Source: Malassezia furfur
Lineage: Eukaryota
Direction: 5' to 3' (one strand)
DNA length: 53,979 nucleotides
NCBI GenBank assembly: GCA_052055015.1
Contig: JBQJIT010000026.1
The position numbers and the translations under genes were made by a program. This document shows positions 29,456-48,882 of the stretch, one piece after another. The notes beneath the pieces were generated by a model, which was not told the origin of the DNA, made no database searches, and saw only the letters and a list, made by a program, of their open reading frames with translations. Each line of letters starts with the position of its first letter. The stretch's first letter is position 1.

Positions 29456-31008
29456 ATGTCGGACGCGCAAGGCGGCAACGGACTGGGGTCCGCGTCCGCG
29501 CTCAGCTCGGGGTTCCCGCTGAACTCCATTCTTGGTAACCAGACGCTGCGGCAGGGCGATTCGAACGCCATGTACTATCCGCAGGTACGTCCCCGACACA
29601 CCGCCCGCTCCGCGGCGCCCGCCCCGCGCTCCGGCCGGGGTACGCGCGCGTCGGGCGTGCGCGCCCACAGTGACTAACACCGCAGAGCACGCATCCCTTC
29701 TATGCTGGGCATCATGCGCAGCCGAATTCGCCGCCCGCGCGCGCGCCGCACGGGGCCGAGGGCGGCGCGTATCCCAGCGGGCACCTTGTGCCCTACCTCA
29801 ACCAGCACGGCGGCGATACGGGCGACATGGGCGCGGCGGGCGCGCCACAGCTTGACGCCTTCTACATACAGCAGCCGCCCGGCTCGTTTGTTGTGCCGCT
29901 GGACGTGCCCGACGTCAACTCGTACGCACACCCCCAGGCCGGCCTGCCGTCCGGCCTGCCGCTCCGCGGTCCGTCGAACCTGCCCGGCTGGGGTGCACCG
30001 TCGCGCCAGTCGCCCGCGAATGCGCCGCACGATGCGCACGATGAGGCTGACATGCTCAATGGCGCCCACGGTTACCCACCACTCTCCGGGCCCATGCCCG
30101 GCGCGGCGCGCGGCATGGGTCAACCCATGTATGCGCGCCCCACCGACGCACACCGCCAGATGATGCTCGAGCAGGAGGCTGCGGCGCGCGGCGGGCGCGG
30201 TGCGCCCATGCCCAAGCGGCGGCGCACGAGCCCCGTGCCGTTTGGCGAGCCTGGCGCGGATCTCATGTCGCGTTTCCGCGGTGCGCCGCAGGGGATGCGG
30301 GGCGCAGCACCGCCCAACGCGCGCGGCCTGGGCGGGCGACGCGACGACGGTGCGCCCCACGACGCCTCTAACCTGTCGGAGCTGATTCCCGGCGCGGACG
30401 ATGGCGCGCCGCCGAGTGGCGACCTCACCTCGTGGATTTTGGGCCCCGACGACCAGCGCAGCGCGCACTTTGCGATGCCCGATGCCGCCGCGTACTACCG
30501 GGCAAACAGCATGGGCCAGCCGGGCCTGCGCCTCGATATGCCGGGCATCCCGCCCAGCCATGCGGGCGCGCTCGATCCGAGCAAGGGCATGGCGCCACTG
30601 CGGTCGCACGCGCCCAACTCGGACGACGAGCCGCTGTATGTGAACGCGAAGCAGTACCAACGCATTCTCAAGCGCCGCATGGCACGTGCCCGCATGGAGG
30701 AGAAGCGACGGCAAACGTGGCTCATGCAGCTCAAGCAGCGCGAGGAGCAAAAGAACGGGGGTGCCCCCGCCGAGATCTCCGAGGAGTGGGTCTCCGGGCT
30801 GCTGGCGCTCGACGAGGAGTCCAAGAAGCCCTACTTGCACGAGTCCCGCCACAAGCACGCCATGCGCCGCCCGCGTGGACCAGGCGGGCGCTTCCTCACC
30901 ACGGAAGAGATCCGCAAGCGCGACGATGAGGCCGCCAAGAAGGCCCAGGCCGAACAGGCCGAGCAGGCCGAGCCGGCCCCCCCCGCAGCGGCGGCGGCGA
31001 GTACATAG
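29456..31008 (+). CDS. HAP2: CCAAT-binding complex subunit Hap2/HapB (NF-YA); exons 29456-29584 and 29686-31008
   Basis: [17 protein letters not shown] and [24 protein letters not shown]; a 43-codon first exon joins in frame through a 101-nt GTACGT...CTAAC..CAG intron. Confidence 0.92.
29585..29685 (+). other. 101-nt GC-rich intron in HAP2
   Basis: CAG|GTACGT ... gaCTAACacCGCAG|; phase 0; the downstream exon is in frame with the Hap2 domain ORF. Confidence 0.85.
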
Positions 31009-31899: not shown

Positions 31900-34800
31900 C
31901 TAGGCAGCACGTAGCGCGACGGCACGCAGCCGCGCGAGCGATGCATCAAACGTACGTGCCGCGGGGAGCGGCGTGTGCAGCAGCAGCTCGGTGCGCGCCA
32001 CATCGAGGTACACGGGCACGAGCGGCGCCTGCGCCTCGCCGTCGGCGGCGCGCGTCCATCGCAGCGCACACTGCGACACGCGCGTCGTTGTGCCGTCGTT
32101 CAGGCCCACGCCCTCGTCGGTGATGGCTGCACCGTCCAGCCATAGATCTGGTTTAGCTCACACAAACGTACCGTCCACCAAGTAGACACCGGGTGCACTC
32201 GTCTCGACCCCCGTCACCACGGCCGGCACAACCTCCTCGAGGTGCGTGTGCGTGGCACGTGCCGCAGCCTGACGCGCCGCCATCAAGAAAGCACGCACGT
32301 TAAACAGGCGGTGCAGCGCGACACGCACCGGCGGCGTACCGCACTGTGCAATGCGCGCACCGAGATCCGCGATCCACCCCGCGAGGCCCAGGTCGGGCGC
32401 GACGGGGTACGCGCGCCACGCGTCGGGCACGTCGTCGCGTACGATCGCCGTGGCCAGCGCCGCGCTCTCATTCGTGTGCCGGCCGTGCGTGTCGGCGGCA
32501 TCGACCACCGCGCCGAGTTGGGCGCGGACACGCTCAAGGAGCGCGTGCGCCGCGTCCTGCTCGCGCCGCCAGAAGCTGGGTTAGCCGGGGGTTACATACA
32601 AAGCAAAGGCCGGGTCCGAGGGCGCGCCGCGCTCAACCCGTTCGGGTAGCGCCGTAAGCCATCCAGATGCAAGCTCCGCGGCGCGCTGGGTTTCGTCGGT
32701 GTGCGCGTATTGGGCATCCGTGTCTGTGTGCTGCTGGAGCGACGCGAGGCGGTGCAGCGCGTCGAGCGCATGCGACGCCGCAACGCTGCGCTCTGCGTAC
32801 GGCGCGAGGAGCAGCCACTGCACGGGCTGGGGCGTGGGCAGCGCGTGCGCCCATGCAACAAACTGCTCGTGCCGCGTGCCCTCAGGCAGGACAAGGGGCA
32901 CCATGGGGTCGGGCGCGAGCACAAACGCCGCATCAAAGCTCGCTGGGACAAAGACGCGGTCGATGAGCGCATCGAGCATGGCGCGGTCCGGCGCGCGATC
33001 GAGTTTTGCACCATACACGGCCTGCTTGAGCATCGTGCGAAGCGCGTCCCACGGCACGTCGGCCGGCGCGAGGTGCGCCTTGTGCCCCGCAGCGTGCCGC
33101 GTCCACGTATCGATTAGGTCGAGCGACGCGAGGAAGTCGACTTCGTGGAACTCGTACACCTGCGTCCAGCCGATTGGCACGTACTGTACGCGCTCGACCA
33201 CGACTGCATGCACATACGCGGCAAGGCAGTAGAGCCGTACACGCTCCTGTGGCCCCGGCATGGCCGCGCGAGCCTCGGCGAGGCGCAGGCACGCAAGCAG
33301 CGCCGCTTTGACACCCGCCGGCGGCTCGTGCATCACGACATGCGCGCCGCGCAGCGCCGCACGCGGCAGCCGCGCACTCAGCTCGCACGTCACGAGCACA
33401 CGCGTCGCGGCGTGGGCGTGCAGCGCAGCTACGCGCGGCACCAGTCCCGCGAGCCAGGGCAGCGCCAGGTGCGCGTTTTGCACCAGCACCCAGTGCCCCG
33501 CGCGCGCCGCAAGCGCCAGCGTACGCTCCGCCGCCACGAGCGCCTCGGGCGCACCGAGCGCCACGTCCGGGCATGCGATGCCCCGCACCCGTGCGGCGTG
33601 CATCACCTGCCTGCTCGCGTCATGCCCCGGGGGACTGCACAGCACAACGGGCACGTGTGCCGGCGTGGCGTCGATCAGAGCATCGATGCCGGGCAACTCG
33701 TACAGCGGCACGTCCAGCGCGGCCTCGAGCGCACGTGCGATGCTTGGCACGGTATGATCGGCACGTACGATGCGCACGGCGATCGCGCGGCGCACGAGAC
33801 GCGCGACGTCCTCCGCTTCTGTCGCATCGTCGTCCTCGAGTGGAGTTGGCGCCGTTTCGGGCGCCGGGCGCGCGGCGTACGCCGTCCATGCCTTGGCGCG
33901 CTGCCCGCGATCGAGCTCAACGCGGCGCACGTACGGCACATCCGGCAGCCACGGCGCAAGCAGCGTGCGCAGCTCGTTGTCATCATCGCGCGCGATAAGC
34001 GCCAGGACGGCTGCGAGGACGAGGCGGTCACGCTGCAGCACAGAGGGCGCCGTCGCGCCGTACGCCTCGCGGAACAGCGCGCGTGTGAGCTCCGCGACGC
34101 GGTCGGCACCGTCGTGCGCGGGCGTACGCAGCACGCGGTCGAGCACGTCCCAAAACACGTCGAGGCTCCATTGGTAGTACGGCTGGAGCGTACCCATGTC
34201 ATGCAGCGCAAAGTAGACGGCGCTTGCCGCCTCGGCCAGCGGCTCGTATGCATCTGTCACTGTGCGGACGTGCGCGGCGAGCTCCGCCGCCTCGGTCGCA
34301 CGCGCTTGCACCTCCTCTGCCTCGGTCTTGAGCGTCTCGAGGGTGGCGACCACCTGGTCGCTCTCGAGCAGGTGCCCCTGCGCCTCGTTCAGCGCCGCAA
34401 GCAGAGCGTGGTCGAGGTGCTGCAGCCGCCGCTGGAACTCGCCCTGCGCCGCGGCAACCTGCGCACGCTGCGTCTCGATGTCGGGGCGCTCGGCGTGCAG
34501 CACACGGTGCAGCGCCTGCGCCTGCAGACTCTTGCGCGTGGTGGTAAAGTTGACCATCTGCACGCGACACGCGACGTACTCGGGCAGCACCGGCGCCGGG
34601 TCACGCGTCGTGAGGAACAGCCGGAACGACGGCGCACAGTCGACGTCCTGCTGCGCGACGCGCACCAGCACTCGCCCGCCCGTACGCCGCTTCTCCTGCT
34701 TGAGTACAGGCAGCAGCACCGGGTCGATGTGCTCGGCGTCGTGGAGCAACAGCGGCGTGCCAAATCGCAGCGCGCTCTCGAGCACCTTGACAAAACTTGT

Positions 34801-36315
34801 ATCCTGGCAACTCGCCACGGCGAGCTTCTGCGCAGCATAGCGCCGCTGTACGTACTGCGCCGCCTCGCCGGTCGGGTCGATCAGCATGGGGTAGCGTGTG
34901 CAGTGCTCCACAATCACGGCGTTGTCGACGGCGAGCGCGTCGCTCGGCAGCCCATGGGCATGCCACGTCGCGCGCGTGTCGGCCGGCACAAGCCAGTCGC
35001 GCACGCTCAACGCCACACGAAAGGGGATGTGGGCATCGCGCAGCATCCTCTCCCACTGCGCCCAGAGCGCATCCCGCACGCCCTGCTCAAAGTAGCCCGC
35101 ATACGCCACGAGCGCCGCACTCAGCAGCGCATCGCCCACGAGCGTCTGCACCTGCTCGTCAAAGTCGGCACGTCCACGCTCCCAGCGCGCACGCTCCGCC
35201 TCGAGACCCGCCAGCAGACGCACGCTGCGCTCGACGCGCTGCTCGATGCGCTCCATTTCGGCCTTGGTCGCCTGGATGTCGCTGATCAGCGCCGCATACT
35301 GCGCCTTGTAGTCCGCAATGCTCGCCTCGAGCGCTTGGACCGACTCGGCGGCGTGCGCCGCCTCGGCACGCGTTTGCTCCGCATGTTCCTCAACCGAGCG
35401 CATCTCGGCACGCAGCGGCGCGACCCGCTCCAGAATGTCGGCATAGTGCACCTGCGCCATGACCCAACGCGCCAAGGGTCCACACGCCTTGCTCGCATGG
35501 TTGATAATGTCGTAGCTGTACTCTTCGCGGCTCAGGTATTCGCGCTTAAGCCGCTCGCGCACCGCCTTGCGCACAGCATGCTCCGTGTCCAGATGCACAA
35601 CGTTCGCGATAAAATCGTCACGGCGCAGAATCGCCTGAACGCTCTTCCACCCTTCGAGCTGCTCATGGCCGAGCAAAATGCACACCGACTCCATCGTGCT
35701 TTTCACGGGGGCTGGTGGGTTGGAAAGCGAACGCAGCTCGGTCAACTGCTGCTTCTTGATGTTGCTCACCGCCGCCTGCGCGTCCAGCAGCGCCGGCTCT
35801 GCCTCGGCCAACTGGCGCAGCACCGACTCGCGCTGCGCAGCGACAGCGGATTCCTGCTCTCGCAGCGAGGCATGCAACACCAGAGATGCTTCACGCTGTG
35901 ACTCAGCCATCTGCTGGTTATGCACCATACTCTGCAGGCGCACGTTCGCCTCGTCGTTCATCTGCGCCAGCTTGGCGCGCTGTGTCGCCAGTGAGGCCTG
36001 CATCGCCTCGACCTGCGCGACCGTCTCACTCAGCCGGTCCAGACCCACGATGCGAAAGCGCTGCTGATCTTCCAGCACCTCTTTCTGGGCACTTAGGATC
36101 GCACCAAAGCTGTGCAGCTGCGCAAGAAGATGTTGAGGCGATGCGGGGAATCCGGGCGACGCAGACCCGGCCGCATACGTAGCAAAGTGCATTTCCACAG
36201 CGACACGGGATACGGCATCGCGGTGTATCCCGAGGTCCTGTGTGCGTGTCAGCTCCCGCGCGACCGTACGACACGCCTCTGCGGACCAGTCGCCGGTCGG
36301 ATGCGCGTCGATCAT
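31900..36315 (-). CDS. dyn2: Cytoplasmic dynein heavy chain C-terminal half (AAA4 small subdomain, stalk/MTBD, AAA5, AAA6, C-sequence); exons 36315-32600, 32575-32172, 32147-31900; 1455 aa
   Basis: MIDAHPTGDWS...; GLDRLSETVAQV; stalk tip AVSNIKKQQLTELRSLSNPP...SKACGPLARWV; RYPMLIDP; LESALRFG; GHWVLVQNAHLA; YEFHEVDF. Two 24-nt introns restore DPAFAFFWRRE and YLVDDLWLDGA...PVYL. Confidence 0.93.
32148..32171 (-). other. 24-nt intron 2 of dyn2
   Basis: GTACGTttgtgtgagCTAAAcCAG; carries an in-frame TGA; flanking exons share one frame. Confidence 0.85.
32576..32599 (-). other. 24-nt intron 1 of dyn2
   Basis: GTATGTaacccccggCTAACcCAG; carries an in-frame TAA; removal gives F-F-W-R-R-E, resembling dynein DPLFRFFERE. 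Confidence 0.88.
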
Positions 36316-36477
36316 CGCAGAGGGGTGAAGTGCCACGTGGGGTGTTGGACGTGTTGGACGGTGCACGGTGCGCCGAGCACCCAGCCACACACAACCGGGT
36401 AGTGCTGGGTGCATTGGTCCAGCCCAGCCTTGGCCCCATATATGGCCTTTAAGATACCATCTCATACTCTACATACA

Positions 36478-37380
36478 CTACTTGAGGTACTGCTTAAAAA
36501 ACTCGACGAGCTTCGGGCCCGACACATCGAGATGGTCGTACAGGTCAACGTGCGTCTCACCCGGCACCACAAACAGCTCGCGCGGCTCACGCGCATTCAG
36601 AATGGCACGCTCGCTGTAGAATTTCGTGTCGGCCTTGGAGCCGACAATCATCAACACGGGCCGCGGCGAAATCAGGTGCATGAACTGGAACGAGTCGTAG
36701 TTCACGAGGTACATCATGCTCGTCGCGTCCAGCTTGTTGGGTGCGTTCTTGTGCTGCGCACGCGGCGACTTGTAATAGTCCGGTGCCTCCTTGAACATCG
36801 TTTCATCCGGAAGACTCGAAACGTCTGTGGGGAGAATGTCGTTTGCGACAGGAGCTCCGCCCTGGTCCATCGCCGTGCGAACCTTGGCAGCCCCTGCGAG
36901 CTGCTCCTGCAGCGCGTCGTTCGACATCGGCCCCGTGGGCAGACCATCACGGAACAGGCAGCCTGCACACGCGGCACTAACGGTCGCGACCGCCTTGATG
37001 CGCAAGTCGGTTTGCGCAGTGAACGGCACATAGCCGCCCGAGGCACAGATGCCAAGCGCACCCACCTTCTCGGGGTCGACACAATCCTGCGACTGCACAA
37101 AGGACACGGCTGCACGGAAGTCCTCAGCACGCTGCGACGGGTCCTCCAGGAAGCGTGGCTCACCTTCGCTCTCGCCCTGGTAGGCGGCGTCAAAGGCGAG
37201 CGCCACGAAACCTTCCTTGGCGAGCAGCTCGGCATGTTGCCCTGCTGTCTGCTCCTTCACACCCGTCATAGGGTGGCCTACCACGACAGCCGAGTGCTTG
37301 CCCGAGCCATCAGGCTTGTACAGGTTACCGGCGATGCGGAGGCCACGGCTGCGGAAGTTCACTTTATCGACAGAGACCAT
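36478..37380 (-). CDS. Alpha/beta hydrolase of the YcjY-like/dienelactone-hydrolase-related type with a Cys nucleophile elbow
   Basis: HPMTGVKEQTAG, AFDAAYQGESEGEPR, elbow GICASGG, PRPVLMIVGSKAD, PGETHVDLYD; intronless, 300 aa. Confidence 0.85.
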   Translation of the reverse strand: MVSVDKVNFRSRGLRIAGNLYKPDGSGKHSAVVVGHPMTGVKEQTAGQHAELLAKEGFVALAFDAAYQGESEGEPRFLEDPSQRAEDFRAAVSFVQSQDCVDPEKVGALGICASGGYVPFTAQTDLRIKAVATVSAACAGCLFRDGLPTGPMSNDALQEQLAGAAKVRTAMDQGGAPVANDILPTDVSSLPDETMFKEAPDYYKSPRAQHKNAPNKLDATSMMYLVNYDSFQFMHLISPRPVLMIVGSKADTKFYSERAILNAREPRELFVVPGETHVDLYDHLDVSGPKLVEFFKQYLK

Positions 37381-37418
37381 GATTCTACGTGTAAGTAGGG
37401 CTGTCCGAGCGCGGCCCC

Positions 37419-37427
37419 TTTATTATA
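37419..37427 (-). promoter_or_regulatory. TATA-like element (TATAATAAA) ~40 bp upstream of the hydrolase ATG
   Basis: AT-rich box in otherwise GC-rich DNA, oriented toward the gene. Confidence 0.45.
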
Positions 37428-37883
37428 TTCGCACTCCCTTGTGGCCCGAGACGACCTATGCATCGCTGACCCAGGTTGAATAATCAGGAACCAGATCCCG
37501 ATGGAACGGTACCCAAGCGGGCGCAGAAAGGCGGTCGGCTGGACGGATTGGCCCGTGCTTCATATTCCCGCTGCGTCGAGGACGCAAAATGACATAATGA
37601 AGTCTAGCACGAAATGAACGGCGCCCGATCCTGGAAGGATTGACTGTCCTGTTATTAGAGGCGGCCGCGTGGTGTCACATTCAGCTGGATTTTGGACCGA
37701 CTTGGGTTGGGACAGGGTCATTACTCTCCCTAAATCATGTCGCCTGGGTTTTCGCTGTTAATTATCAGTAGCATAATGCAAGTAAGATCGATCGATTGCA
37801 TTGGATACACCTGCGTCATGAATTGTCACGAAGCTAGCGGGCATCTCATGGGTATTCATCCGACTCAATCTATGAGACACGCA

Positions 37884-38645
37884 TCAAGAAGCAGGCGCAT
37901 CACCGCCAGTAGCATCTGTGCTTGGCATGTACCCCATCTTCAGGCGCTCTTCCAAGCGCCGGATCTCGTCCAGCGACTCGCTCTTGTCAATCGCTTCCTG
38001 GATCGCTGCGCGGTCTTTGGCCGTAAGTTGGCGGCCTGCCGCACCAGGGATAGGTGCGCCTGGCTCGAAGCGTGCGGCATGCGTCGGTGCCGCCGCCGGA
38101 GCTGAGGTATCTGAGCCAGACAGCTGAATGGCTAGTTCCGAGGCTCGTCCCTCTGGCGTTTCCATCAGCCGCCGGGCATATTCGCGCTCCTTGTCAGTAA
38201 CGCGCTTAAAGTCCAGCACTCGCACATTTGGCAACCGCCAAATAACAAACTCGCGGTAGTGCTTCTCGTGCGATACCGGATTGCCGAGCAACGAGAGGTA
38301 TTCGAGGCGGCGCAGACGCCGGAGCGGCACGATCTGGCGCATATCCGCAATGGCATTATTTGTAAGGACAAGCGTGTGCAAGTACGGAAGCGACTTCCCA
38401 AGCAGCGGGTCCACGCGTGTCACGAGGTTGTTGGAAAGAATGAGGTGCTGCAAACGCAGGAGGCGGGGAAAGTTGCCGAGATATTTGATTTCGTTGTCGG
38501 TAAAGTCGAGCGCATCATTTTGGTCGCGTGTCACACCGAGGTTTTCGATGGAGACGATCTTCAGCCCTCGCAAGTCCAGCTCGCGTTCCTTCAGTGGGTT
38601 GAGCGACGAGTCGCTCTGTGCGAGCAGCTCCCCCGTGAGCTTCAT
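37884..38645 (-). CDS. LEA1: U2 snRNP protein A' (LRR)
   Basis: ATG 38645: MKLTGELL...NPLKERELDLRGLKIVSIENLG; LDFTDNEIKYLGNFP; LLGNPV...HYREFVIWRLPNVRVLDF; SLDEIRRLEERLKMG. Confidence 0.93.
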   Translation of the reverse strand: MKLTGELLAQSDSSLNPLKERELDLRGLKIVSIENLGVTRDQNDALDFTDNEIKYLGNFPRLLRLQHLILSNNLVTRVDPLLGKSLPYLHTLVLTNNAIADMRQIVPLRRLRRLEYLSLLGNPVSHEKHYREFVIWRLPNVRVLDFKRVTDKEREYARRLMETPEGRASELAIQLSGSDTSAPAAAPTHAARFEPGAPIPGAAGRQLTAKDRAAIQEAIDKSESLDEIRRLEERLKMGYMPSTDATGGDAPAS

Positions 38646-38665
38646 CGTCGCAACAGGAGGAGGGC

Positions 38666-38682
38666 CACGTGATGCACACGTG
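38666..38682. promoter_or_regulatory. Paired CACGTGA E-boxes in the 92-bp LEA1/CDC3 divergent promoter
   Basis: CACGTG at 38666 and 38677 (11-bp period). Confidence 0.6.
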
Positions 38683-38737
38683 ATCGCGGGGGCGGCGCCG
38701 CGCGACGGCACAGCTTGCTCCCAGCACCCCCGGTATT

Positions 38738-39931
38738 ATGGCAGCCGCGACGCAGACGCCCTCCGCGATTCCGCGCAAGAAGCTGACCTCGTATGTGGGT
38801 TTTGCGAACCTCCCGAACCAGGTGCACCGGCACACGGTGCGCAAGGGCTTCACCTTCACCATTATGGTTGTCGGTGAGACGGGACTGGGCAAGTCCACCC
38901 TGATCAACACGCTGTTCAACACGAACCTGGTGCCGAGCGGCGAGGAGCGCCTCGCTGCGCGCGAGCCCACCCAGTCGGTCGGCATCGACACCATCAGTGC
39001 GGACATCGAGGAGAACGATGTGCGCCTGCGTCTCAACATCATCGACACGCCGGGCTTCGGTGACTTTGTCAACAACGAGAACGCGTGGGAGCCCATCCTG
39101 CAGACGATCGAGGCGCGCTTCGATTCGTTCCTTGAGCAGGAGAACAGGATGAACCGCAACAAGATTGTGGACAACCGTGTGCACGCACTGCTCTACTTTA
39201 TCCAGCCGACCGGCCATGGGCTCAAGGCGCTCGACTTGGAGTTTTTGGCGCGCGTGCACAAGCATGTGAACGTGATCCCTGTGATTGCTAAGTCGGACAC
39301 GGTGGATCCGTTTGAGCTGCCGGGTTACAAACGGCGGATAATGCAGGACCTGGCCTTCCATAACATCCAGACGGTGCAGCTGCCCATCTCGCCGGACGAC
39401 GACGAAGAAAGCGTTGCCGAGATTGAGGAGATCCAGAGCAAGATTCCGTTTGCGATTGTCGGCTCGAACAACCTGGTCAAGACGCCCGAGGGCCGCACGG
39501 TGCGCGGCCGCGCGTACCCGTGGGGCGTGGTCGAGGTGGACAACGAGCGGCAGAGCGACTTTGTCAAGCTGCGTCAGATGCTCATCCGCAACAACATGGA
39601 GGACCTTCGCGAGCTGACGGAGCGTGTCTACGAGGAGTACCGTACGCAGAAGCTGCTCAGCCTCGGCATCAACCAGGACGACAGCGTCTTCCAGCAGGTG
39701 AACCCCGGCACGCAGCAGGCCGAGGCGCGTGCGCTGCACGAGGCGAAGCTTGCCAAGATGGAGCACGAAATGAAGCTGGTTTTCCAGCGCAAGGTCGCCG
39801 AGAAGGAGGCCAAGCTGAAGCAGAGCGAGGAGGAGCTCTACGCGCGGCACCGCGAGATGCGCAACGCGCTCGACCAGCAGCGCCAGGAGCTCGAAGAGCG
39901 CAAGCGGCGAATCCAAAACAGCCTCCGCTAA
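38738..39931 (+). CDS. CDC3: Septin Cdc3/AspB type
   Basis: YVGFANLPNQ, GETGLGKST, DTPGFGD, AKSD, GRAYPWG; C-terminal coiled coil EMKLVFQRKVAEKEAKLKQSEEEL. Confidence 0.93.
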   Translation: MAAATQTPSAIPRKKLTSYVGFANLPNQVHRHTVRKGFTFTIMVVGETGLGKSTLINTLFNTNLVPSGEERLAAREPTQSVGIDTISADIEENDVRLRLNIIDTPGFGDFVNNENAWEPILQTIEARFDSFLEQENRMNRNKIVDNRVHALLYFIQPTGHGLKALDLEFLARVHKHVNVIPVIAKSDTVDPFELPGYKRRIMQDLAFHNIQTVQLPISPDDDEESVAEIEEIQSKIPFAIVGSNNLVKTPEGRTVRGRAYPWGVVEVDNERQSDFVKLRQMLIRNNMEDLRELTERVYEEYRTQKLLSLGINQDDSVFQQVNPGTQQAEARALHEAKLAKMEHEMKLVFQRKVAEKEAKLKQSEEELYARHREMRNALDQQRQELEERKRRIQNSLR

Positions 39932-39973
39932 CTAGGTCCGTAGCGAAATTGCAGATTTACCACCGCGTCCAGC

Positions 39974-42900
39974 ATGGCGGAGGACAGTGCGCTGCACGCG
40001 TACATCGCGGCGCTGCTGCCGACGGTGCTCGGCGTGCAGGGCACGCTGTCCAACGCAAGTGCCGAAGAGGAATGGGACGAGGTTGAGCAGGCGTTTGTCT
40101 CGGACGCGCAGGTGCCTGTCGTGTTCGTTGACCAGTGCACCGAGAAGAACAACACTTGGTCGTATGCGCTGGCCCGGCGGCCGACGTACGCGCCCCCCGA
40201 GCACGTCTCGAGCATCGCGCTGATCAAGAGGCGCGCTCATATTGATACCCGTGCGCCGCTCGCGCATCAATTGCGCGTCGTGACGCTGCTCGGCAGCGCG
40301 GCGGCCGACGACGCGTCGGCCGGCGCTGCATTGCTCGAGACGCCCTACGAGGCGCTCGAGTCGGTGGTGCACAGCGTTATGGCACCTTGGTTTGACGCCT
40401 ACGCAACGCACGACCGTACGGATGACGAAAAGCGCACCAAGGAGGACGAGATCCCGCTTGTGAAGCGCAAGTTTGCCGAGCTCGAGCTCAGCCTGCGGCA
40501 CCTGCAGCAGAGCGTCGAGATCCCGCAGGTGGTGTTAGCCATCCACCCGACGATCCGAGCAGCGGTCGAGGCGTGCGAAGAGCAGCACATCCCCGTGTCG
40601 GCCGCGGCAATCGACCCGCCACGCCTGCTGCACGACGACCAGTTTGTGAACGAACTGCACGCCGAGATGAACGGCTGGGTTCGCGCCGTGCAAAAGATCA
40701 CCAAGCTCGACCGCGATGCGGCAAGTGGCACGGCGATGCAGGAGATTCATTTCTGGAACGCTATGGAGCACGCGCTCGAGGGGCTGGAACAGCAGTTGCA
40801 CGCCCCCGGCATCACGCTCACGCTCGAGGTACTGACGAACGCCAAGCGCTTCCATGCCACCGTCTCCTTCCACACGGACACCGGCATTAAGGACTCGCTC
40901 GAGCGCGTGCGCAGCTACAATGTGCTGATGCGCGACTTCCCGCTGCCCGACCTGCTCGCTGCGACGACGCTGCCGGCGTGCAGTGACGCGCTGCGTGCCA
41001 TCTTTAGCGTGCTGAGCAAGAAGCTGCGCGTGAGTACCTATCCCGTGTCGTGCGCGCTCGCATTTGTCGAGGCCATCGGGCGCGAGGCGAACGAAGTGCT
41101 GCTGCGCATGCTCACATCGCTCGCGCCGATGCAGCTCGCGTACGATGCGTGTGCCGCCATTTTCCACGAGGCGCTCCAGGTGCTGGGCGAGTGGGACGAG
41201 CATGTGAAAGAGTTTGTCTATGTCGCGCGCGACTTGACGCGCAAGCGCGCGGAAAAGTACATCCCCATCAAGGTCGCGCCCGTACATGCGGCACTGCGCG
41301 CGCGCGTCGAATATCTGCAGCGCTTCCGCGCCGCGCACCAAGAGCTTGTCGAGATGGTCGATGTGAGCCGGTCGTGGTCCTCGGCGCCGACGCCACTGCT
41401 CGCCGAACTGCGCGCAGCGCTCGACCCGATGCTCGCAATCGACGCACTGGACGTCTCTGAGAAGGGCACCGAGCTCCTTGCGCAGGCCGAGACTCGCTAC
41501 AATACGAAGATTACGCACGTCGAGAGCCTGTTGGTGGACAAACTGCGCACGCTCCTCGACGGCGCGCAGTCGGCTCGCGAGCAGCTGCGCATCTTGGCAC
41601 AGTGCAACCGGCTGTTTGTGCGGCCCAAGGTGCGTGCCGCGGTGCAAGAGTACCAGCAGGTGTTGTTGCACAGCGTGCAGAGCGATATTGATGCGCTCCA
41701 TGCCAAGTTCCGCGCGGGCTTCCGCCACTCGGACGCACACCTTGCGGCGCAGCTGCGGCACCAACCCGAGATCGTCGGCGCAGTAGTGTGGGCGAACGAG
41801 ATCGAGCGCCAGCTGCAAGTGTACCTACAGCGCGTGCACGACGTGCTTGGCGCGGGCTGGGAACACTACGCGGATGGCCAACGCATCCACGCCGAGAGCA
41901 CGACGTTTGCACGTAAGCTCGATACGCGCCCACTGCTCGCCGCGTGGTCACAGGACATGGCGCGGCGCGGCACACATGTCACCGGTGCATTGCTGCGCGT
42001 GGTGCAGGACCGCAGCACGGGTACGCTGCGCCTCGTGGCCAACTACGATGCGCAGGCGTTTGCGTTTGCCGACGAGGCGCACGCGCTCACCATGCTGGGC
42101 GTGTCGATTCCACAGGCGCTCGTGAGCGCGGCGCTGGATGCGCGGCGTATCTACCCCTTTGCGCTGTCCATTGTGCACTCCCTGCGCACACTCGACAAGA
42201 CGCGCGCACGGCTGGAGCCGACGTTTGCACCGCTACTTGCGCATGCCGAGAACGAGGTGCATGCGCTGCTGTCGCAGACAGTAAATGGGCGCTGGGAGCG
42301 CTTCCTGGACAGCTACAGCAGTGTGTACACCAGTGCGAATGCCGAGGCGCTGCGCGAGAATGCCCAGGTAACGCTCGTCGAGAAGCTGGCCGCGGCGTGC
42401 ATCGCATTTGAGGAACAGACGCAACACGTCGCGCAAGTCTCTGCGCACACCGATGAGGTGCTCGACGCGATGGGGTCGTGCGTGTACGATGCCGCGGTGT
42501 TGGGGGCGCACCTAGCCCAGCTGCAAGAGGATGTGGACGCACTCAGCCTCAAGGCATACCCCAACCTTGCACGGTTTGTCGCGGCGCTCGACGCGCGCAT
42601 CGAGCGCGTGCTCCAGCTGCGCGTCGTTGCCGAGCTGCGCCGCCTTGCGGCGAATTTTGCGACGCGCAGCGAGCGCGCAGCCGTGGCGTTAAGCGTGCGC
42701 CTCGTCAACGCCGTGCTCACCCTCGAGCCATCGTTGGAACACGCGCGTGCGCACGGATTCGGCGCGATCCGCGAGACGCTTGCGGTCGTGCTGCGCCTTC
42801 CGCGCGTGCACGCAACGCGGTATGCACTGCACCTCGGTCAGACGGCTGCGGGCACCTACCAAACCGTGCTCGATGCGCTCCCGAGCGACGTGCTCACTGC

Positions 42901-45900
42901 GCCGCTTGACCGCCTCGAGTCGCGTCTCGCGGCTGCCGCGGCGTACGCGCAGACGTGGCTCGCGCTGCAGTTCCTCTGGGACGTCGAGCCCGAGGCGGTC
43001 GCTGCACAGCTCGGCACGGATTTGCATGCCTGGCACACGTTTGTGCAGCACCTGCGGCATGCACGCGCGCGAATTGATGCCCGCGCACCGCGCCGTGCGT
43101 TTGCTTTTGTCGAGGTTGACCCTGAGCCCGTGCAGGCGCGGCTCGCGCAGAAGCTCGATGGCTGGGAAGAGGCACTGCTCGCGCACTACGCCGGTGTGCT
43201 TGCGAACGCGATGCGCGCGTCGCACACAGTGCTCGCCGAGGGTCGCGCTAAGCTCGAACCGATGCAGATTGCCGGCGCATCGACCGCGCAGGTCGTCGCA
43301 CTCATCACGCTCGTACAGCGCCTTGCGCACGAGACACAGCATGTGCGAAATGCGCTCGACGTGTACAGTGCGGGCCAGGATGCGCTGCAGCGCCGGCGCG
43401 TGTGTCCCGCCGAATGGCTGTATGCCGAGCACGTTGCCGGCGAGCACACGGCACTGGAACAGCTGCTTGTCGCGAAGCGCGCACTGATCGATGCCGAGCA
43501 CGAGTCAATACACGCGCAGATCGCGGCCGAGGACCAGGCAGTGGCTGTGCGCGCTGAAGAGCTTGCAGCCGCGTGGATCGAGGAGCGACCCGTGCAGGCA
43601 GCCATCTCGGTGCGCACTGCGCAACAGACGCTCGCATCATTCGCGGCGCGCCTTGGCGACGTGCAGCGTGCACGGTCCCAGACGACGGTCGCGCTCGAGG
43701 CGTTTGGCCTGCCGGCGCGCACAGACCAGGCGCTCAGCGTCGTCGCCGAGGAGCTCGACGAGTTGCAGTCAGTCTGGGGCGCACTCGCTGAGATCTGGGC
43801 GCAGCTCGATGAGCTACGCGCGACGCCCTGGGCCGCCGTGCAGGTGCGCAACGTGCGCCAGCGCCTCGAGGCGCTCCAGCGCACGGCACGCGCGCTGCCG
43901 AGCCGGATGCGGCAGTATGCCGCGTACGAGCATGTGCATGACGAGTTGCTCTTCCTCACGAAACACGTACCGGTGCTACAGGACCTACGTGCAGACGCGT
44001 TCCAGGAGCGCCACTGGCGCGCGCTGTACAAGCGTGTCGGGAAGCGCTACCTGCCCTCCTCGCAGACGCTCGGCCAGGTGTGGGATCTGAACTGGCGCGC
44101 CAACCTACCCCTGCTGCGCACGCTCCTAGCCGAGGCACAGGGCGAGTATGCGCTGGACGTCTACTTGCAGCAGGTGCGCGAGGCATGGACGGGCTATTCG
44201 CTCGACCTAGTAAACTACCGCAACGAGTGCATGCTGGTGCGTGGCTTTGACGCGCTCTTCCAGCTCGCCACCGAGCACGCCAACGGCCTGCGCACCATGA
44301 GCGCGAGTCCCCACTACCGCATTTTTGAGGAAGAGGCACGGCGTTGGGAGGAGCGCGTGGCGCGTGTGCAGACGACGTTTGAGCTATGGGCGCAGGTGCA
44401 GCGCCAGTTTGTCTACCTCAACGGCATTTTTACCTCGAGTCCCGAGATGAAGCACATGCTCCCGATGGAGACGAACCGCTTCCAGAGCATCACATCCGAG
44501 TTCCTTGCGATCTTACGACGTGTCCAAAAGGCGCCGTACGTGCTCGAGGTTGTGCAGCAGCCCGGTCTGGAAGCGGCGCTCGAGCGCCTCGCCGAGCTCC
44601 TGCACAAGATCCAGACGGCGCTCGGCGAGTACCTCGAGCGTGAGCGCGTGCGCTTCCCCCGCTTCTTCTTTGTGGGCGACGAAGACCTGCTCGAGATGCT
44701 CGGCAACCGCCAGGACATTGCGCGCATTGCGCCGCACCTGTCCAAGCTTTTTGCGGGTATTGGCCGCATCGACGACGAGGCGGGCATCGTCCGCCACGTA
44801 TATACACGCAGCGGCGACGCTCTTGCGCTTGATGCGCCCGTCGTCCTGGCGCAGCATCATGCACTGCACGAATGGCTCGCTGCGCTCGAGCAGAGCATTT
44901 CCACGACGCTACGGGCGCGCCTGCATGCGGCGGTTGAGGCATTCCCGAGCACGGAGCTCCTGCCGTGGCTCTCGGCGCACGTCCCACAAGTCGTGGTGCT
45001 GGCGTCGCAGGTGGTGTGGGCGCGCGATGTCGAGGCGGCGCTGGAAGGTACTGGGGCGCTCGCCGACGTCGCGGCGCGTCTCGATGTGCGCATTGCCGCA
45101 CTCGCCGAGCAGGTGACGTGCGTCGATGTGCCGTTGCGCCGCGCGTGCGAGCAGCTGCTCACTCTGTGTACGCACCAGCGTGAGGTGGTTGTGCGGCTGT
45201 GCTCCGCGGACGCGAATGCCGCGTCGTTCGCATGGCAGTACGAGCTGCGGCACTACCTCACCGCGTCGGGCGATGTCGAGGTGCGCATGGCCAACACCGT
45301 GTTTGCGTACGGCTTTGAGCTGCTTGATGCCAGCGAGCGGCTCGTGTCCACGCCACTTACCACGGCGTGCTACACGGCGCTGACGCAGGCGCTGCACGCG
45401 CGGTATGGCGGTGCGCCGTTCGGCCCTGCGGGCACGGGCAAGACCGAGACGGTCAAGGCACTCGCCCACGAGCTCGGGCGGCTCGTGTTTGTATTCAACT
45501 GTGACAGCCAGTTTGACGGCCTTGCGATGGCGCGCATCCTCGCGGGCCTGTGTCGTGTGGGTGCGTGGGGCTGCTTTGACGAGTTCAACCGTCTTGACGA
45601 GCACGTCCTGTCGAGCGTCTCGCAGCAGATCCAGGCGATCCAGCAGGGCCTCGCAGCGCCCACCCACACGGCCGAGCTTGGCGGCGTGGCGACGCCCGTG
45701 CATGCACACACGGGCATCTTTGTGACGATGAATCCGACGTACGCCGGGCGCTCACACCTGCCCGACAACCTCAAGCAGCTCTTCCGCAGCGTCGCGATGG
45801 CTGCACCGGACCTCGCGCGCATCGTGCACATTCTGCTGCTCGTGCACGGCTTCCAACACGCCGAGGCGCTCGCCTCCAAAATGGTGCTGCTGTTCGACAT

Positions 45901-48871
45901 GTGCGCCGAGCAGATCCGCGGCGGCGACCACTACGACTTTGGGCTGCGCGCGCTCAAGTCCGTGCTGCGGCGTGCTGCCACGCTCCGGCGCACGCACAAG
46001 CTCAACGATGAACACCGACTGGCGGGCGAGCAGGCAATCCTTGTGCAAAGCGTCGAGGAGATTGTCCCACCGAAACTTGCGGCTGACGATGTCGCGGCGC
46101 TGCAGGCGCTCGTGCGCGACGTCTTCCCTGGTGTGCAGCACGCCTCGGCGCCGCTCGAGGCGCTGCGTACGGCACTCGCGGTGGTGTGCGACGCGGCGCA
46201 CCTCACGCAGGGCGCATGGGCCGACAAGGTGCTCCAGCTGTACCAGATGCAGCAGGTGGCCCAGGGTGTCCTGCTGGTCGGCCCCGCGGCGAGCGGCAAG
46301 ACGTGTGCGTGGCGCATGCTGCTCGCGGCGCTCGAGCGTGCCGAGGGCACCCGGCATGCCGTGCACGTTGTCGAGCCCAAAGTGTGGAGCAAAGAGCACC
46401 TCTATGGCACGCTCGACCCCACCACGCGCGAGTGGACCGATGGGCTCTTGACGTTGCTCCTGCGGCGCATCCACGAAAACGCGCGGCGGGAGAGTGAACA
46501 GCGGCACTGGATCGTGCTGGACGGCGACATCGACCCCGAGTGGGTCGAGAGTTTGAACAGTGTGCTGGACGACAACCGTGTCCTCACGCTGCCCACCGGC
46601 GAGCGCCTCGCGGTGCCAGAACACGTGCGCTTCCTGTTCGAAGTCGAGAACGTGGCGCATGCGACGCTCGCCACCATCACACGGTGCGGCATGGTCGCGT
46701 TCGACGCGGCGCTTGTGCCGCTCCACGCGCGCCTCGCACATGCACTGGCCGAGCTCCGCGCCGCGCCGCTCCATGCCGAGGACGAGTTTGTGTCGCTTGC
46801 GAGCGCCGAGGCGGCCACCGACCATGTGCGCGCGTGGAGCGTCGAGGCACTCGCGCCGCACTGTGCGCCTGGCGCCCTCGTCGAGGCCGTGTGGGAGGCC
46901 GCGGCCACGCATTCCCACATTATGCCGCTCGATCCCGCGCGGTGCGTTGCGACGTTGTTTGCGCTGCTGCGCCGTGCGGCGCGGCACGTACTCGCCTACA
47001 ATGCGCGCCACATCGACTTCCCGCTCACACAGGAGCATGTTGGGCTGTACATGCAACGTGCGCTGTGCGTCGCACTTGTGTGGGCATGCGCGGGCGACGC
47101 GCCACTCGCGGTGCGCGCGGCGGTCGGCGAGGCGGTCCGTGCGCACCCGGGGACGGCGTCGCTCGGAGTGCCACCGGGCGAGCTGCTCGACTTTTACGTC
47201 GAGGCGGTGCCCGACGCGCGCTTTGTCCCGTGGTCTGACCAAGTGGTCGGCGTCGAAGTCGAGACCAGTGCGGTGGTGCGCGCCGACGCCGTCATTCCCA
47301 CGCTCGACACCGTACGGCAAGAGGAGCTGGTGCATGCCTTCTTGCTCGACGAGCGCCCCGTGGTGCTGTGTGGACCGCCGGGAAGCGGCAAGACGATGGT
47401 GTTGTATGCGACGCTGCGGCGCATGCCCGACGTCGTGCTTGCCGGATTGAATCTGAGCAGCCAGACGACCCCCGCGTCGCTCCTAACGCTGCTGGAGGAG
47501 CACTGCACGTACGAGAAGACGCCGAGCGGCACGCGTCTCGTCCCGAGCCAGCTTGGCCGCACGCTTGTGGTGTTTTGCGACGAGATCAACCTGCCGGCGC
47601 CGGACGCGTACGCGACGCAGCGTGTGATTGCCTTTTTGCGGCAGCTTGTCGAGCAGCGCGGCTTCTGGCGCGCGCACACCTGGGTGCGACTCGAGCGCGT
47701 GCAGTTTGTCGGTGCGTGCAATCCGCCGACGGACCCGGGGCGTACTCCCCTGAGCGCGCGTTTCTTGCGGCACGCGCCCGTGCTTATGGTCGACTACCCC
47801 TCGCGCCCGTCGCTGCACCAGATCTACCACACGCTCGTGCGAGCGACGCTGCGCGCCGCGCCGAGCCTCGTGGGCTATGCCGAGGCGCTGACCACTGCGA
47901 TGGTCGACTTCTTCGCCGCGTCGCAGCGGCGCTTCACACCCGAGCAGCAGGCGCACTACATCTACTCCCCCCGTGAGTTGATGCGGTGGGTGCGTGGCAT
48001 TCACCGTGTCGTGGGCCGCGCCGAGCTCACGACGCTCGCCGAGCTGGTGCGTGTGTGGGCGTATGAGGGGCTGCGCCTCTTCCAGGACCGCCTCGTTGCA
48101 GACGACGAGCGCCGCTGGACAGACGCGGCGCTGGACGAGGCGGCCGCCGCAGCTTTCCCCGCGCTGGACGTCGGCGCCGCGCTGCAGCGCCCCATCCTGT
48201 ACTCCGACTGGCTCTCGAAAGAGGTGCGCAGCGTGGCGCGTGCGCCGCTGCGCGAATATGCATCTGCGCGCCTGCGTGGCTACTCGGAAGAGGAGCTTGA
48301 CACGGACCTCGTGCTGCACGACGCGGTGCTTGACCTGGCACTTGGGTGCGACCGCGTGCTGCAGCAGCAGGGCGGACACTTGTTGTTGATCGGCGTGAGT
48401 GGCTCGGGGCGCACGAGCGTCGCGCAGTTCTGTGCTTGGCTGCGCGGCTTGACGCTGTACAGTGTGCCGACCGCACGCGCCTACCGCGACGCCGACTTCG
48501 ACGAAGACTTGCGCCGCCTGCTGCGCCGCGTCGGCGTGCGCGGGGAGCGTGTGTGCTGGACGATGGACGAGTCGCAGGTGGCGCATCCTGCGCGCCTTGA
48601 GCGGCTCAACACGCTGCTTGCCAATGCCGACGTGCCCGGCCTGTTTGAGGGCGAGGACCACACTGCGCTGCTCTCGGCGCTGCGCGAGGCCGCCCAGCGC
48701 GAGGGGCTTATGCTTGCGGCCGAGGACGAGCTGCTCGCCTTTTTCCGCGCGCAGGTGCTCGCGAACCTGCACGTGGTGCTCACGATGCAGCCCCCCCGCG
48801 GCGGCGTCGGCACCAAGGCCACGGCGTCCCCTGCGCTGTTCAACCGGTGCACGCTGGTGTATTGTTGGTAG
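39974..48871 (+). CDS. dyn1: Cytoplasmic dynein heavy chain N-terminal half (tail, linker, AAA1-AAA3, AAA4 large subdomain), 2965 aa, intronless
   Basis: Tail motifs EIHFW and KRFHATVSF; linker FPRFFFVGDEDLL; P-loops GPAGTGKT, GPAASGKT, GPPGSGKT, GVSGSGRT; WGCFDEFNRL; HYDFGLRALK; DPEWVESLNSVLDDN; ends ASPALFNRCTLVYCW*. Confidence 0.95.
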   Translation: MAEDSALHAYIAALLPTVLGVQGTLSNASAEEEWDEVEQAFVSDAQVPVVFVDQCTEKNNTWSYALARRPTYAPPEHVSSIALIKRRAHIDTRAPLAHQLRVVTLLGSAAADDASAGAALLETPYEALESVVHSVMAPWFDAYATHDRTDDEKRTKEDEIPLVKRKFAELELSLRHLQQSVEIPQVVLAIHPTIRAAVEACEEQHIPVSAAAIDPPRLLHDDQFVNELHAEMNGWVRAVQKITKLDRDAASGTAMQEIHFWNAMEHALEGLEQQLHAPGITLTLEVLTNAKRFHATVSFHTDTGIKDSLERVRSYNVLMRDFPLPDLLAATTLPACSDALRAIFSVLSKKLRVSTYPVSCALAFVEAIGREANEVLLRMLTSLAPMQLAYDACAAIFHEALQVLGEWDEHVKEFVYVARDLTRKRAEKYIPIKVAPVHAALRARVEYLQRFRAAHQELVEMVDVSRSWSSAPTPLLAELRAALDPMLAIDALDVSEKGTELLAQAETRYNTKITHVESLLVDKLRTLLDGAQSAREQLRILAQCNRLFVRPKVRAAVQEYQQVLLHSVQSDIDALHAKFRAGFRHSDAHLAAQLRHQPEIVGAVVWANEIERQLQVYLQRVHDVLGAGWEHYADGQRIHAESTTFARKLDTRPLLAAWSQDMARRGTHVTGALLRVVQDRSTGTLRLVANYDAQAFAFADEAHALTMLGVSIPQALVSAALDARRIYPFALSIVHSLRTLDKTRARLEPTFAPLLAHAENEVHALLSQTVNGRWERFLDSYSSVYTSANAEALRENAQVTLVEKLAAACIAFEEQTQHVAQVSAHTDEVLDAMGSCVYDAAVLGAHLAQLQEDVDALSLKAYPNLARFVAALDARIERVLQLRVVAELRRLAANFATRSERAAVALSVRLVNAVLTLEPSLEHARAHGFGAIRETLAVVLRLPRVHATRYALHLGQTAAGTYQTVLDALPSDVLTAPLDRLESRLAAAAAYAQTWLALQFLWDVEPEAVAAQLGTDLHAWHTFVQHLRHARARIDARAPRRAFAFVEVDPEPVQARLAQKLDGWEEALLAHYAGVLANAMRASHTVLAEGRAKLEPMQIAGASTAQVVALITLVQRLAHETQHVRNALDVYSAGQDALQRRRVCPAEWLYAEHVAGEHTALEQLLVAKRALIDAEHESIHAQIAAEDQAVAVRAEELAAAWIEERPVQAAISVRTAQQTLASFAARLGDVQRARSQTTVALEAFGLPARTDQALSVVAEELDELQSVWGALAEIWAQLDELRATPWAAVQVRNVRQRLEALQRTARALPSRMRQYAAYEHVHDELLFLTKHVPVLQDLRADAFQERHWRALYKRVGKRYLPSSQTLGQVWDLNWRANLPLLRTLLAEAQGEYALDVYLQQVREAWTGYSLDLVNYRNECMLVRGFDALFQLATEHANGLRTMSASPHYRIFEEEARRWEERVARVQTTFELWAQVQRQFVYLNGIFTSSPEMKHMLPMETNRFQSITSEFLAILRRVQKAPYVLEVVQQPGLEAALERLAELLHKIQTALGEYLERERVRFPRFFFVGDEDLLEMLGNRQDIARIAPHLSKLFAGIGRIDDEAGIVRHVYTRSGDALALDAPVVLAQHHALHEWLAALEQSISTTLRARLHAAVEAFPSTELLPWLSAHVPQVVVLASQVVWARDVEAALEGTGALADVAARLDVRIAALAEQVTCVDVPLRRACEQLLTLCTHQREVVVRLCSADANAASFAWQYELRHYLTASGDVEVRMANTVFAYGFELLDASERLVSTPLTTACYTALTQALHARYGGAPFGPAGTGKTETVKALAHELGRLVFVFNCDSQFDGLAMARILAGLCRVGAWGCFDEFNRLDEHVLSSVSQQIQAIQQGLAAPTHTAELGGVATPVHAHTGIFVTMNPTYAGRSHLPDNLKQLFRSVAMAAPDLARIVHILLLVHGFQHAEALASKMVLLFDMCAEQIRGGDHYDFGLRALKSVLRRAATLRRTHKLNDEHRLAGEQAILVQSVEEIVPPKLAADDVAALQALVRDVFPGVQHASAPLEALRTALAVVCDAAHLTQGAWADKVLQLYQMQQVAQGVLLVGPAASGKTCAWRMLLAALERAEGTRHAVHVVEPKVWSKEHLYGTLDPTTREWTDGLLTLLLRRIHENARRESEQRHWIVLDGDIDPEWVESLNSVLDDNRVLTLPTGERLAVPEHVRFLFEVENVAHATLATITRCGMVAFDAALVPLHARLAHALAELRAAPLHAEDEFVSLASAEAATDHVRAWSVEALAPHCAPGALVEAVWEAAATHSHIMPLDPARCVATLFALLRRAARHVLAYNARHIDFPLTQEHVGLYMQRALCVALVWACAGDAPLAVRAAVGEAVRAHPGTASLGVPPGELLDFYVEAVPDARFVPWSDQVVGVEVETSAVVRADAVIPTLDTVRQEELVHAFLLDERPVVLCGPPGSGKTMVLYATLRRMPDVVLAGLNLSSQTTPASLLTLLEEHCTYEKTPSGTRLVPSQLGRTLVVFCDEINLPAPDAYATQRVIAFLRQLVEQRGFWRAHTWVRLERVQFVGACNPPTDPGRTPLSARFLRHAPVLMVDYPSRPSLHQIYHTLVRATLRAAPSLVGYAEALTTAMVDFFAASQRRFTPEQQAHYIYSPRELMRWVRGIHRVVGRAELTTLAELVRVWAYEGLRLFQDRLVADDERRWTDAALDEAAAAAFPALDVGAALQRPILYSDWLSKEVRSVARAPLREYASARLRGYSEEELDTDLVLHDAVLDLALGCDRVLQQQGGHLLLIGVSGSGRTSVAQFCAWLRGLTLYSVPTARAYRDADFDEDLRRLLRRVGVRGERVCWTMDESQVAHPARLERLNTLLANADVPGLFEGEDHTALLSALREAAQREGLMLAAEDELLAFFRAQVLANLHVVLTMQPPRGGVGTKATASPALFNRCTLVYCW

Positions 48872-48882
48872 GGTACACAATG

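Follow-up and report, generated by a model that had tools for sequence, protein, structure and literature searches.

Head-to-head dyn1 and dyn2 genes in Malassezia: a conserved arrangement of the split dynein heavy chain and a lead to the mechanism of its fission

How did one gene for the cytoplasmic dynein heavy chain come to be divided into two, and does a present-day locus still carry a trace of that event? The question is raised by a stretch of 53,979 nucleotides from Malassezia furfur (GenBank assembly GCA_052055015.1, contig JBQJIT010000026.1; hereafter the window), in which the two halves of the gene, dyn1 and dyn2, lie close together on opposite strands. An earlier reading of the sequence (the original prediction) had interpreted this geometry as a possible footprint of a single gene-breaking inversion. 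The arrangement was found to be a real, conserved, and apparently undescribed form of a known split gene, and it is a useful lead to the fission mechanism rather than a demonstrated footprint. For the reading that a single inversion split the gene, with the Malassezia locus being the remodelled original heavy-chain locus, we estimated a probability of roughly 0.38.

The dyn1 gene (39974-48871, plus strand) is one uninterrupted open reading frame (ORF) of 2965 amino acids (aa), which ends in a TAG stop codon at 48869-48871 and covers the N-terminal dynein-1 part, the tail, the linker, AAA1-AAA3, and the AAA4 large subdomain. Its Pfam content comprised DHC_N1, DHC_N2, AAA_6, AAA_5, AAA_7, and DYN_lid, together with an AAA_8 match that covered only positions 1-187 of 259. 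The dyn2 gene (36315-31900, minus strand) starts with an ATG at 36315 and ends in a TAG at 31902-31900, and its 1455 aa hold the AAA4 small subdomain, the stalk with the microtubule-binding domain, AAA5, AAA6, and the C-terminal region (Pfam MT stalk, AAA_9, Dynein_heavy, and AAA_lid_11). The halves are thus distinct genes, and both have a start and a stop codon of their own. Three exons were recognized in dyn2 (36315-32600, 32575-32172, and 32147-31900), and the two introns between them, on the minus strand as well, were predicted from the sequence and the Dyn2 alignment: one at 32576-32599 (GTATGT...CTAAC...CAG, with an in-frame TAA) and one at 32148-32171 (GTACGT...CTAAAC...CAG, with an in-frame TGA). 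Both introns are exactly 24 nt long and keep the reading frame, and each holds an in-frame stop, so that an unspliced message would truncate the protein just before the C-terminal region. The spliced product aligned over its full length with the annotated Dyn2 proteins of M. psittaci and M. yamatoensis.

When the intact heavy chain of Cryptococcus neoformans was aligned to the window, residues 1-3102 matched 39956-48856 on the plus strand and residues 3106-4612 matched 36294-31960 on the minus strand. The two halves together therefore make up a complete heavy chain minus three residues (DWF), with zero overlap and with the P-loops of AAA1-4 all in Dyn1, and no further dynein fragment with an E-value below 0.1 was found in the window with this query. 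The closest named relatives were proteins of M. obtusa, with identities of 77% for Dyn2, 85% for LEA1, and 82% for Dyn1, the latter measured against MOBT1_000756 over residues 1750-2965. The pair is a split cytoplasmic dynein-1 heavy chain of the Ustilaginomycotina type, and by analogy with Ustilago maydis the two polypeptides would have to reassemble without a covalent link.

The position of the cut was examined against nine intact fungal heavy chains and the Dyn1 and Dyn2 proteins of other Ustilaginomycotina. The dyn2 product begins MIDAHPT-GDWS..., and the split falls within AAA4, before the stalk, at ...FNRCxL | GDWS..., which maps to 3092|3095 of human DYNC1H1 and to about 2914 of yeast Dyn1. 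Judged from the point where the Pfam model is cut and from the general AAA+ plan, this is probably the end of the AAA4 large subdomain, before the small subdomain and the stalk. Metagenome contigs were also scanned with the Dyn2 N-terminal alignment, and the best 80 of 160 confirmed loci were kept, consisting of four Malassezia-like loci (L001-L004, belonging to another clade, 53-54% identity) and 76 loci with collinear heavy chains, the majority of them full-length. In all 76 of the latter, Dyn1 homology stops at residue 2961 and Dyn2 homology begins at residue 8, with 9 nt between them.

The same cut was shared by Malassezia (LVYCW), Ustilaginales (IMFCW or ILFCW), Tilletiaria (LLYCW), and Tilletia (LLYCF). 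Of the 19 named or Malassezia-like Dyn1 proteins, 18 ended in NR[CT]..[YF]C[WF]-stop, the sole exception being the Violaceomyces Dyn1 model with an unrelated terminal sequence; the Violaceomyces Dyn2 starts like the others. Every class sampled had a Dyn2 start composed of a variable leader of 4-25 residues followed by GDW. All Ustilaginomycotina examined share one split point, and this identity of the cut across classes points to a single and old split event, consistent with previous accounts (PMC4540427; PMC5100056), and comparison of the termini with intact chains and with relatives confirmed that this is the known Ustilaginomycotina type of split within AAA4, as originally predicted. The four or five residues that follow ...NRCxL in Dyn1 are kept across classes as [VLM][YF]C[WF], or as LFCFG in further assemblies. 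Judging from this pattern, the aromatic or hydrophobic tail may be what is left of DWF(G) after divergence, and be required to finish the last strand, rather than foreign read-through. An origin of the tail from frameshifted DWFGDWS codons was also considered, where neither shifted frame yielded VYCW-stop, in a weak check made by hand with assumed codons.

The start codons of dyn1 and dyn2 are 3659 bp apart and the genes are divergent, with a hydrolase gene, LEA1, and a septin gene between them. The septin gene (38738-39931, plus strand; Pfam Septin) lies immediately upstream of dyn1 on the same strand. It is of the Cdc3/SEPT7 type, as its scores against solved structures were 376 bits for Septin-7 and, among the yeast proteins, 293 for Cdc3, 242 for Cdc12, 232 for Cdc10, and 205 for Cdc11. 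LEA1 (37884-38711, minus strand; Pfam LRR_9) encodes the U2 small nuclear ribonucleoprotein (snRNP) A' protein, has homologues named U2 snRNP complex subunit, and is upstream of dyn2 on the same strand. The hydrolase gene (36478-37380, minus strand) encodes a DLH-type alpha/beta hydrolase of 300 aa (Pfam DLH, Peptidase_S15, and Abhydrolase_1). Beyond the dyn2 stop codon, HAP2 (29788-31008, plus strand; Pfam CBFB_NFYA), the CCAAT-binding factor subunit B, is convergent with dyn2, and VPS13 (19446-29261, plus strand; Pfam VPS13 domains) is the second conserved neighbor on that side. The genes, strands, distances, and intervening hydrolase, LEA1, and CDC3 of the original prediction were thus borne out by coordinates, Pfam matches, and alignments.

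Comparison of this neighborhood within the genus showed that the linkage is conserved. Searching the Malassezia-like metagenome loci with the window proteins (tblastn) gave the same order in L001, L002, and L004, with dyn1 and CDC3 on one strand, LEA1 and dyn2 divergent from them on the other, and HAP2 and VPS13 convergent with dyn2. The order in L003 was identical from CDC3 onward, the contig ending inside CDC3. The distance between the two start codons in the Malassezia-like loci was 2.2-2.4 kb. Similarly, the Dyn2 and Dyn1 locus tags are three to four apart in M. obtusa (MOBT1_000753/756), M. yamatoensis (MYAM1_000686/690), and M. vespertilionis (MVES1_003145/142), where the Dyn1 and Dyn2 contigs are also equal in size; two more such pairs occurred at 50,439 and 73,383. 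Additionally, the LEA1 contig was equal in size to the Dyn1 or Dyn2 contig in eight named Malassezia species. Head-to-head linkage of dyn1 and dyn2 is therefore genus-wide in Malassezia. The recurrence of one order and orientation in independent metagenome contigs, together with the agreeing locus tags of three annotated species, excludes for practical purposes a block that was mis-oriented or mis-joined during assembly and leaves such an error a negligible chance.

What appears to be new is the arrangement. That the gene is split, and that Malassezia has the split form, is established: the literature gives the position of the cut and reports it for M. globosa (PMC4540427, main text and supplementary Table A; PMC5100056). 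A literature search for Malassezia, dynein heavy chain, and split matched PMC4540427 only, and no description of the Malassezia arrangement or of an inversion mechanism was found in a search that was not worded for inversion and did not extend to supplement Fig. A of PMC4540427. The word "inversion" has no occurrence in PMC4540427, and "Malassezia" does not appear in the main text or in one supplementary file of PMC5100056, supplementary file 1 lying outside that coverage. Close halves on opposite strands may have been seen in the work behind PMC5100056 but left undescribed in the parts covered.

The geometry of the locus could be accounted for by one inversion. Reversing 36316-48871, a block of 12,556 bp, gives a collinear gene in which the dyn1 3' end meets the dyn2 5' end on the same strand, and the alignment of C. 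neoformans residues 1-3102 and 3106-4612 agrees with the original prediction that flipping 36.3-48.87 kb rebuilds the heavy chain. This result is necessary to the hypothesis and not specific to it. No single inversion other than that of dyn1 with the septin-LEA1 block restores the gene. Under the proposed history, one inversion in the common ancestor of the Ustilaginomycotina would have had its two breaks at the AAA4 codon position and upstream of the septin-LEA1 pair, and would have turned around the 5' part of the gene together with its upstream neighbors. Malassezia would have retained the resulting head-to-head geometry, the Ustilaginomycetes and Exobasidiomycetes would later have dispersed dyn1, dyn2, and LEA1, and in part of Malassezia the hydrolase gene would later have entered the spacer before dyn2. 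That the locus is in this sense a living fossil of the splitting inversion, cut at the AAA4 large/small boundary, with the evidence lost from the other classes, is put forward as a tentative proposal. The case for such a relic rests mainly on the improbability of a chance juxtaposition, plus a loose linkage of CDC3 and DYN1 in Cryptococcus, both of which are taken up below.

Several observations weigh against this history, beginning with the junctions themselves. The original prediction had placed its left breakpoint in the spacer of 162 bp between the hydrolase stop codon and the dyn2 ATG (36316-36477) and its right breakpoint in the gap of 11 bp between the stop codon of dyn1 and that of the convergent gene T (48872-48882). 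The hydrolase had no tblastn match in any of the four other Malassezia loci (L001-L004), where LEA1 ends about 150 bp before dyn2 in the place that the hydrolase occupies here. Because of this absence, the hydrolase-dyn2 junction is not ancient and not genus-wide; it is a later construct, and the present left junction cannot stand as the original breakpoint. Judged from the distance between their tags, the halves would be separated by two genes in M. obtusa and M. vespertilionis and by three in M. yamatoensis. The hydrolase may have been inserted late or acquired by transfer: it had 7205 homologues at E<=0.001, the best representative being 55% identical and many others 45-55%, and its nearest Atlas clusters were dominated by Ascomycota and Actinomycetota, not Basidiomycota, which is a lead only. 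Its match to UilS-type lactonases in NCBIfam was weak (69 bits, cut-off 400). No inverted repeat pairing 36.3 kb with 48.87 kb was present among the 25 longest of 98 pairs. Neither the hydrolase-dyn2 nor the LEA1-dyn2 junction is common to all descendants, as an inversion in their ancestor would predict, a discrepancy that later rearrangement could explain. Moreover, the geometry discriminates weakly, as divergent and convergent linked halves both fit one inversion and at least two other histories yield the same geometry. The gene is essential in U. maydis (PMC4540427), and an inversion that broke it also needs simultaneous expression of both halves.

The situation outside Malassezia adds to these difficulties. 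Placement there was read from scaffold sizes or locus tags and not from maps, so that the draft assemblies exclude adjacency and not looser linkage. The two halves are on separate scaffolds in Kalmanozyma brasiliensis (Dyn2 on 545,293 and Dyn1 on 647,740), Violaceomyces palustris (46,967 and 27,551), and Tilletiaria anomala (227,569 and 463,366), and probably in Pseudozyma hubeiensis (560,939 and 813,625), which is less safe as two assemblies are possibly involved. LEA1 was parted from dyn2, dyn1, or both in every non-Malassezia species that could be judged: it is off both the dyn2 and the dyn1 contig in Kalmanozyma (516,438) and Violaceomyces (75,483), it is off the dyn2 contig in Melanopsichium, Thecaphora, and Ceraceosorus, and tags are far apart in U. 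tritici (Dyn2 NDA13_005252, LEA1 NDA13_005943) and P. flocculosa (Dyn1 PFL1_03705, LEA1 PFL1_04584). The LEA1-dyn2 junction expected from the inversion is therefore not shared, and the neighbor comparison that the original prediction had called for, conserved as it is within Malassezia, found dyn1, dyn2, and LEA1 on different scaffolds beyond it. In U. maydis, dyn1 and dyn2 are reportedly on different chromosomes, according to Straube and colleagues in 2001. Published U. maydis tags are UMAG_04372 for dyn2, UMAG_10503 for cdc3, and UMAG_04370 for a TauD-type dioxygenase near dyn2. No split-type locus of smuts or exobasidiomycetes was found among the best 80 of the 160 metagenome loci, and a scan of prokaryote genome contigs for stray fungal contigs gave no match.

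The polarity of the linkage depends on where Malassezia branches. A maximum-likelihood tree of concatenated Dyn1 and Dyn2 (16 rows, 4571 columns, LG+G4, quick search), with intact heavy chains as the outgroup, recovered the topology (Tilletiaria,(Malassezia,(Violaceomyces,Ustilaginales))) with SH-aLRT values of 99 at both relevant nodes. With 1.02 substitutions per site, the stem branch of Malassezia is very long, and long-branch attraction would be expected to draw Malassezia outward, not inward. The class-level phylogeny of Ustilaginomycotina has been called unsettled (PMC7451774; PMC6899921). As Malassezia is nested among unlinked lineages in this tree, parsimony at equal weights reads the linkage as derived, with one gain versus two losses, which counts against an ancestral inversion. 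Three considerations oppose this reading. A Malassezia genome holds roughly 4,000 genes, and by our own estimate from this general figure, chance would place two given genes no more than two or three genes apart in about 0.1-0.2% of cases. Loss of adjacency over such distances is commonplace and far commoner than gain, and with two genes between the halves there is no shared bidirectional promoter on which selection could act. Because chance juxtaposition is rare, adjacency is often lost, and no shared promoter offers itself to selection, we favor an ancestral linkage of dyn1 and dyn2 by odds of roughly two to one. The original prediction had named ancestral non-linkage as a finding that would refute it, and on this point the evidence divides, equal-weight parsimony reading the linkage as derived and the rarity of chance juxtaposition favoring an ancestral state.

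Gene order around the intact gene in outgroups provides a further comparison. The single-inversion model predicts a pre-event order of gene T, LEA1 and the septin gene transcribed divergently, the intact gene (DHC1) following the septin gene on the same strand, and HAP2. The CNAG locus tags of C. neoformans presumably run in chromosomal order. DYN1 is CNAG_05894 (PMC12584667, Table 4) and CDC3 is CNAG_05925 (PMC11651612, tables), a separation of 31 tags that would occur by chance in about 1% of cases if the tags follow chromosome order. This loose linkage agrees with an ancestral gene that had a septin gene close to its 5' side and is a weak positive. The direct neighbor of DYN1 is CFT1 (CNAG_05895). 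Weighing against the model, VPS13 (CNAG_01722) is far from DYN1, and the septin, LEA1, HAP2, VPS13, the hydrolase, and gene T were found at none of the 76 intact-gene metagenome loci, which are taxonomically unassigned and whose flanks cover no more than about 0.4-1.1 kb on the upstream side and about 6.5 kb on the downstream side. The outgroup neighbors are thus weakly positive on the septin side and negative on the dyn2 side.

Two other histories have to be set beside the single inversion. The gene may instead have been split in place by another route, with the inverted geometry arising in a second step, so that the original neighborhood was kept and the inversion was not the gene-breaking event. 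This could have happened through a stop codon and a new start or promoter, or through inserted DNA, giving tandem dyn1 and dyn2 that were then turned by a local inversion, or through an inverted segmental duplication after which one copy lost its 3' half and the other its 5' half. The linkage evidence counts equally for such a history, and the conserved four-residue Dyn1 tail, aromatic or hydrophobic at the position of DWF(G), fits point changes as well as foreign read-through. Duplication with complementary loss would also avoid the lethal intermediate of an essential gene, a matter of general knowledge, and the gain or loss of the hydrolase demonstrates that the spacer was reshaped afterwards. 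However, two events are needed where one is sufficient, and no tandem arrangement was seen in the loci and annotations examined, in which the split-type genomic DNA covered was that of Malassezia only. The absence of residual dynein fragments from the window also offers it no help, although none would be expected after such a time. On balance we consider a split in place rather unlikely.

Alternatively, the halves may have been unlinked in the ancestor of the Ustilaginomycotina and joined secondarily on the Malassezia stem during genome compaction, by chance or by selection for balanced expression, in which case the geometry would be uninformative on the fission. The nesting of Malassezia between unlinked lineages makes this the most parsimonious history at equal weights, and it agrees with LEA1 being unlinked to both halves outside Malassezia, with dyn2-side flanks that are not common to Cryptococcus or to the 76 intact-gene loci, and with a Malassezia stem long enough for ample rearrangement. 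It has to contend with the low chance of such a placement estimated above, with two unrelated genes between the halves and hence no bidirectional promoter, and with the greater ease of losing adjacency than of gaining it. The draft scaffolds, with Violaceomyces contigs of 27.5 and 47 kb, leave looser linkage possible, and in C. neoformans the tags of CDC3 and DYN1 differ by 31. A secondary meeting of the halves is an unlikely explanation, and a somewhat less probable one than a split in place. As to the single inversion, the part of the original prediction that holds is the geometry and its genus-wide linkage; what tells against the footprint is the recent hydrolase-dyn2 junction, the unlinked LEA1 elsewhere, and the lack of inverted repeats noted above.

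The remainder of the window provides context for the locus. Its GC content ranges between 58 and 72%. The genes around dyn1 are tightly packed, with 42 bp between the septin stop codon and the dyn1 ATG (39932-39973) and convergent stop codons of dyn1 and gene T that are 11 bp apart; with such gaps, the dyn1 promoter and both 3' ends must overlap the adjoining genes. Gene T (48883-50631, minus strand) is an ORF of at most 582 aa, convergent with dyn1 and without a Pfam family, whose nearest Atlas clusters are basidiomycete alpha/beta-hydrolase-like proteins; together with a biotin synthase gene it flanks the dyn1 side. On the other side, 7 kb from VPS13, a reducing polyketide synthase of 2749 aa (4337-12586, minus strand) has the domain order KS-AT-DH-ER-KR-ACP plus a terminal reductase domain. 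An ORF of 840 aa without a Pfam family (13271-15793, minus strand) lies between it and an Nramp transporter gene (16317-18269, minus strand).

In Basidiomycota, the cytoplasmic dynein heavy chain is known to have been split on three independent occasions, for which no mechanism is given in the sections of PMC5100056 and PMC4540427 covered here, the latter only noting the linkage in Agaricomycetes. The Malassezia linkage offers a concrete and testable locus in this respect, as it predicts the genes that should flank the intact gene in outgroups if an inversion was responsible and indicates the lineages in which tandem or linked intermediates might be sought. If the living-fossil proposal is true, it would provide the first concrete mechanism and an ancestral locus for the way in which an essential motor gene of 4,600 codons was divided and the organism stayed viable. 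The sequences further suggest that cutting a very large motor gene at a boundary between subdomains need not abolish its function, which may be of interest to dynein engineering.

The split cytoplasmic dynein of U. maydis, Dyn1 and Dyn2, was reportedly described by Straube and colleagues in 2001 in the EMBO J. The Malassezia genes resemble this pair in being split inside AAA4 before the stalk and in the domain content of the halves, and they resemble those of the Ustilaginales in the Dyn1 tail (..[YF]C[WF]) and in a Dyn2 leader followed by GDWS. They differ from the Ustilaginales, where the halves are on different scaffolds, in being divergent and 3.66 kb apart in the window, and close and divergent throughout the genus. 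The Ustilaginomycotina split within AAA4 before the stalk was surveyed by Kollmar (2016; PMC5100056), who found split points without a link to introns; the mechanism and the conserved head-to-head Malassezia arrangement are absent from the portions of that survey covered here. In Agaricomycetes, the halves Dhc1 and Dhc2 invariably share a scaffold, with as much as 500 kb between them (Brunsch et al., 2015; PMC4540427). For example, those of Schizophyllum commune are on one scaffold in opposite directions, also suggesting a local origin, as in Malassezia. However, the S. commune split is independent, lies at about aa 1180 before the motor, and separates the halves by 413 kb instead of a few kb, and orientation and intervening genes vary among Agaricomycetes (PMC4540427). 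Among the collinear metagenome loci, heavy-chain homology started at about residue 1179 in five (L061, L062, L064, L069, and L077) and at 1100-1205 in four others (L036, L065, L067, and L078). A start at about residue 1179 matches the Agaricomycete-type split at aa 1180 (PMC4540427), and no N-terminal half was found on either strand at those of the nine loci whose upstream sequence extends over 3.6-4 kb. Dynein heavy chains encoded in several genes are also found in Giardia and Spironucleus, where, unlike in Malassezia, the genes are dispersed and of axonemal classes, with some parts being trans-spliced (PMC5100056).

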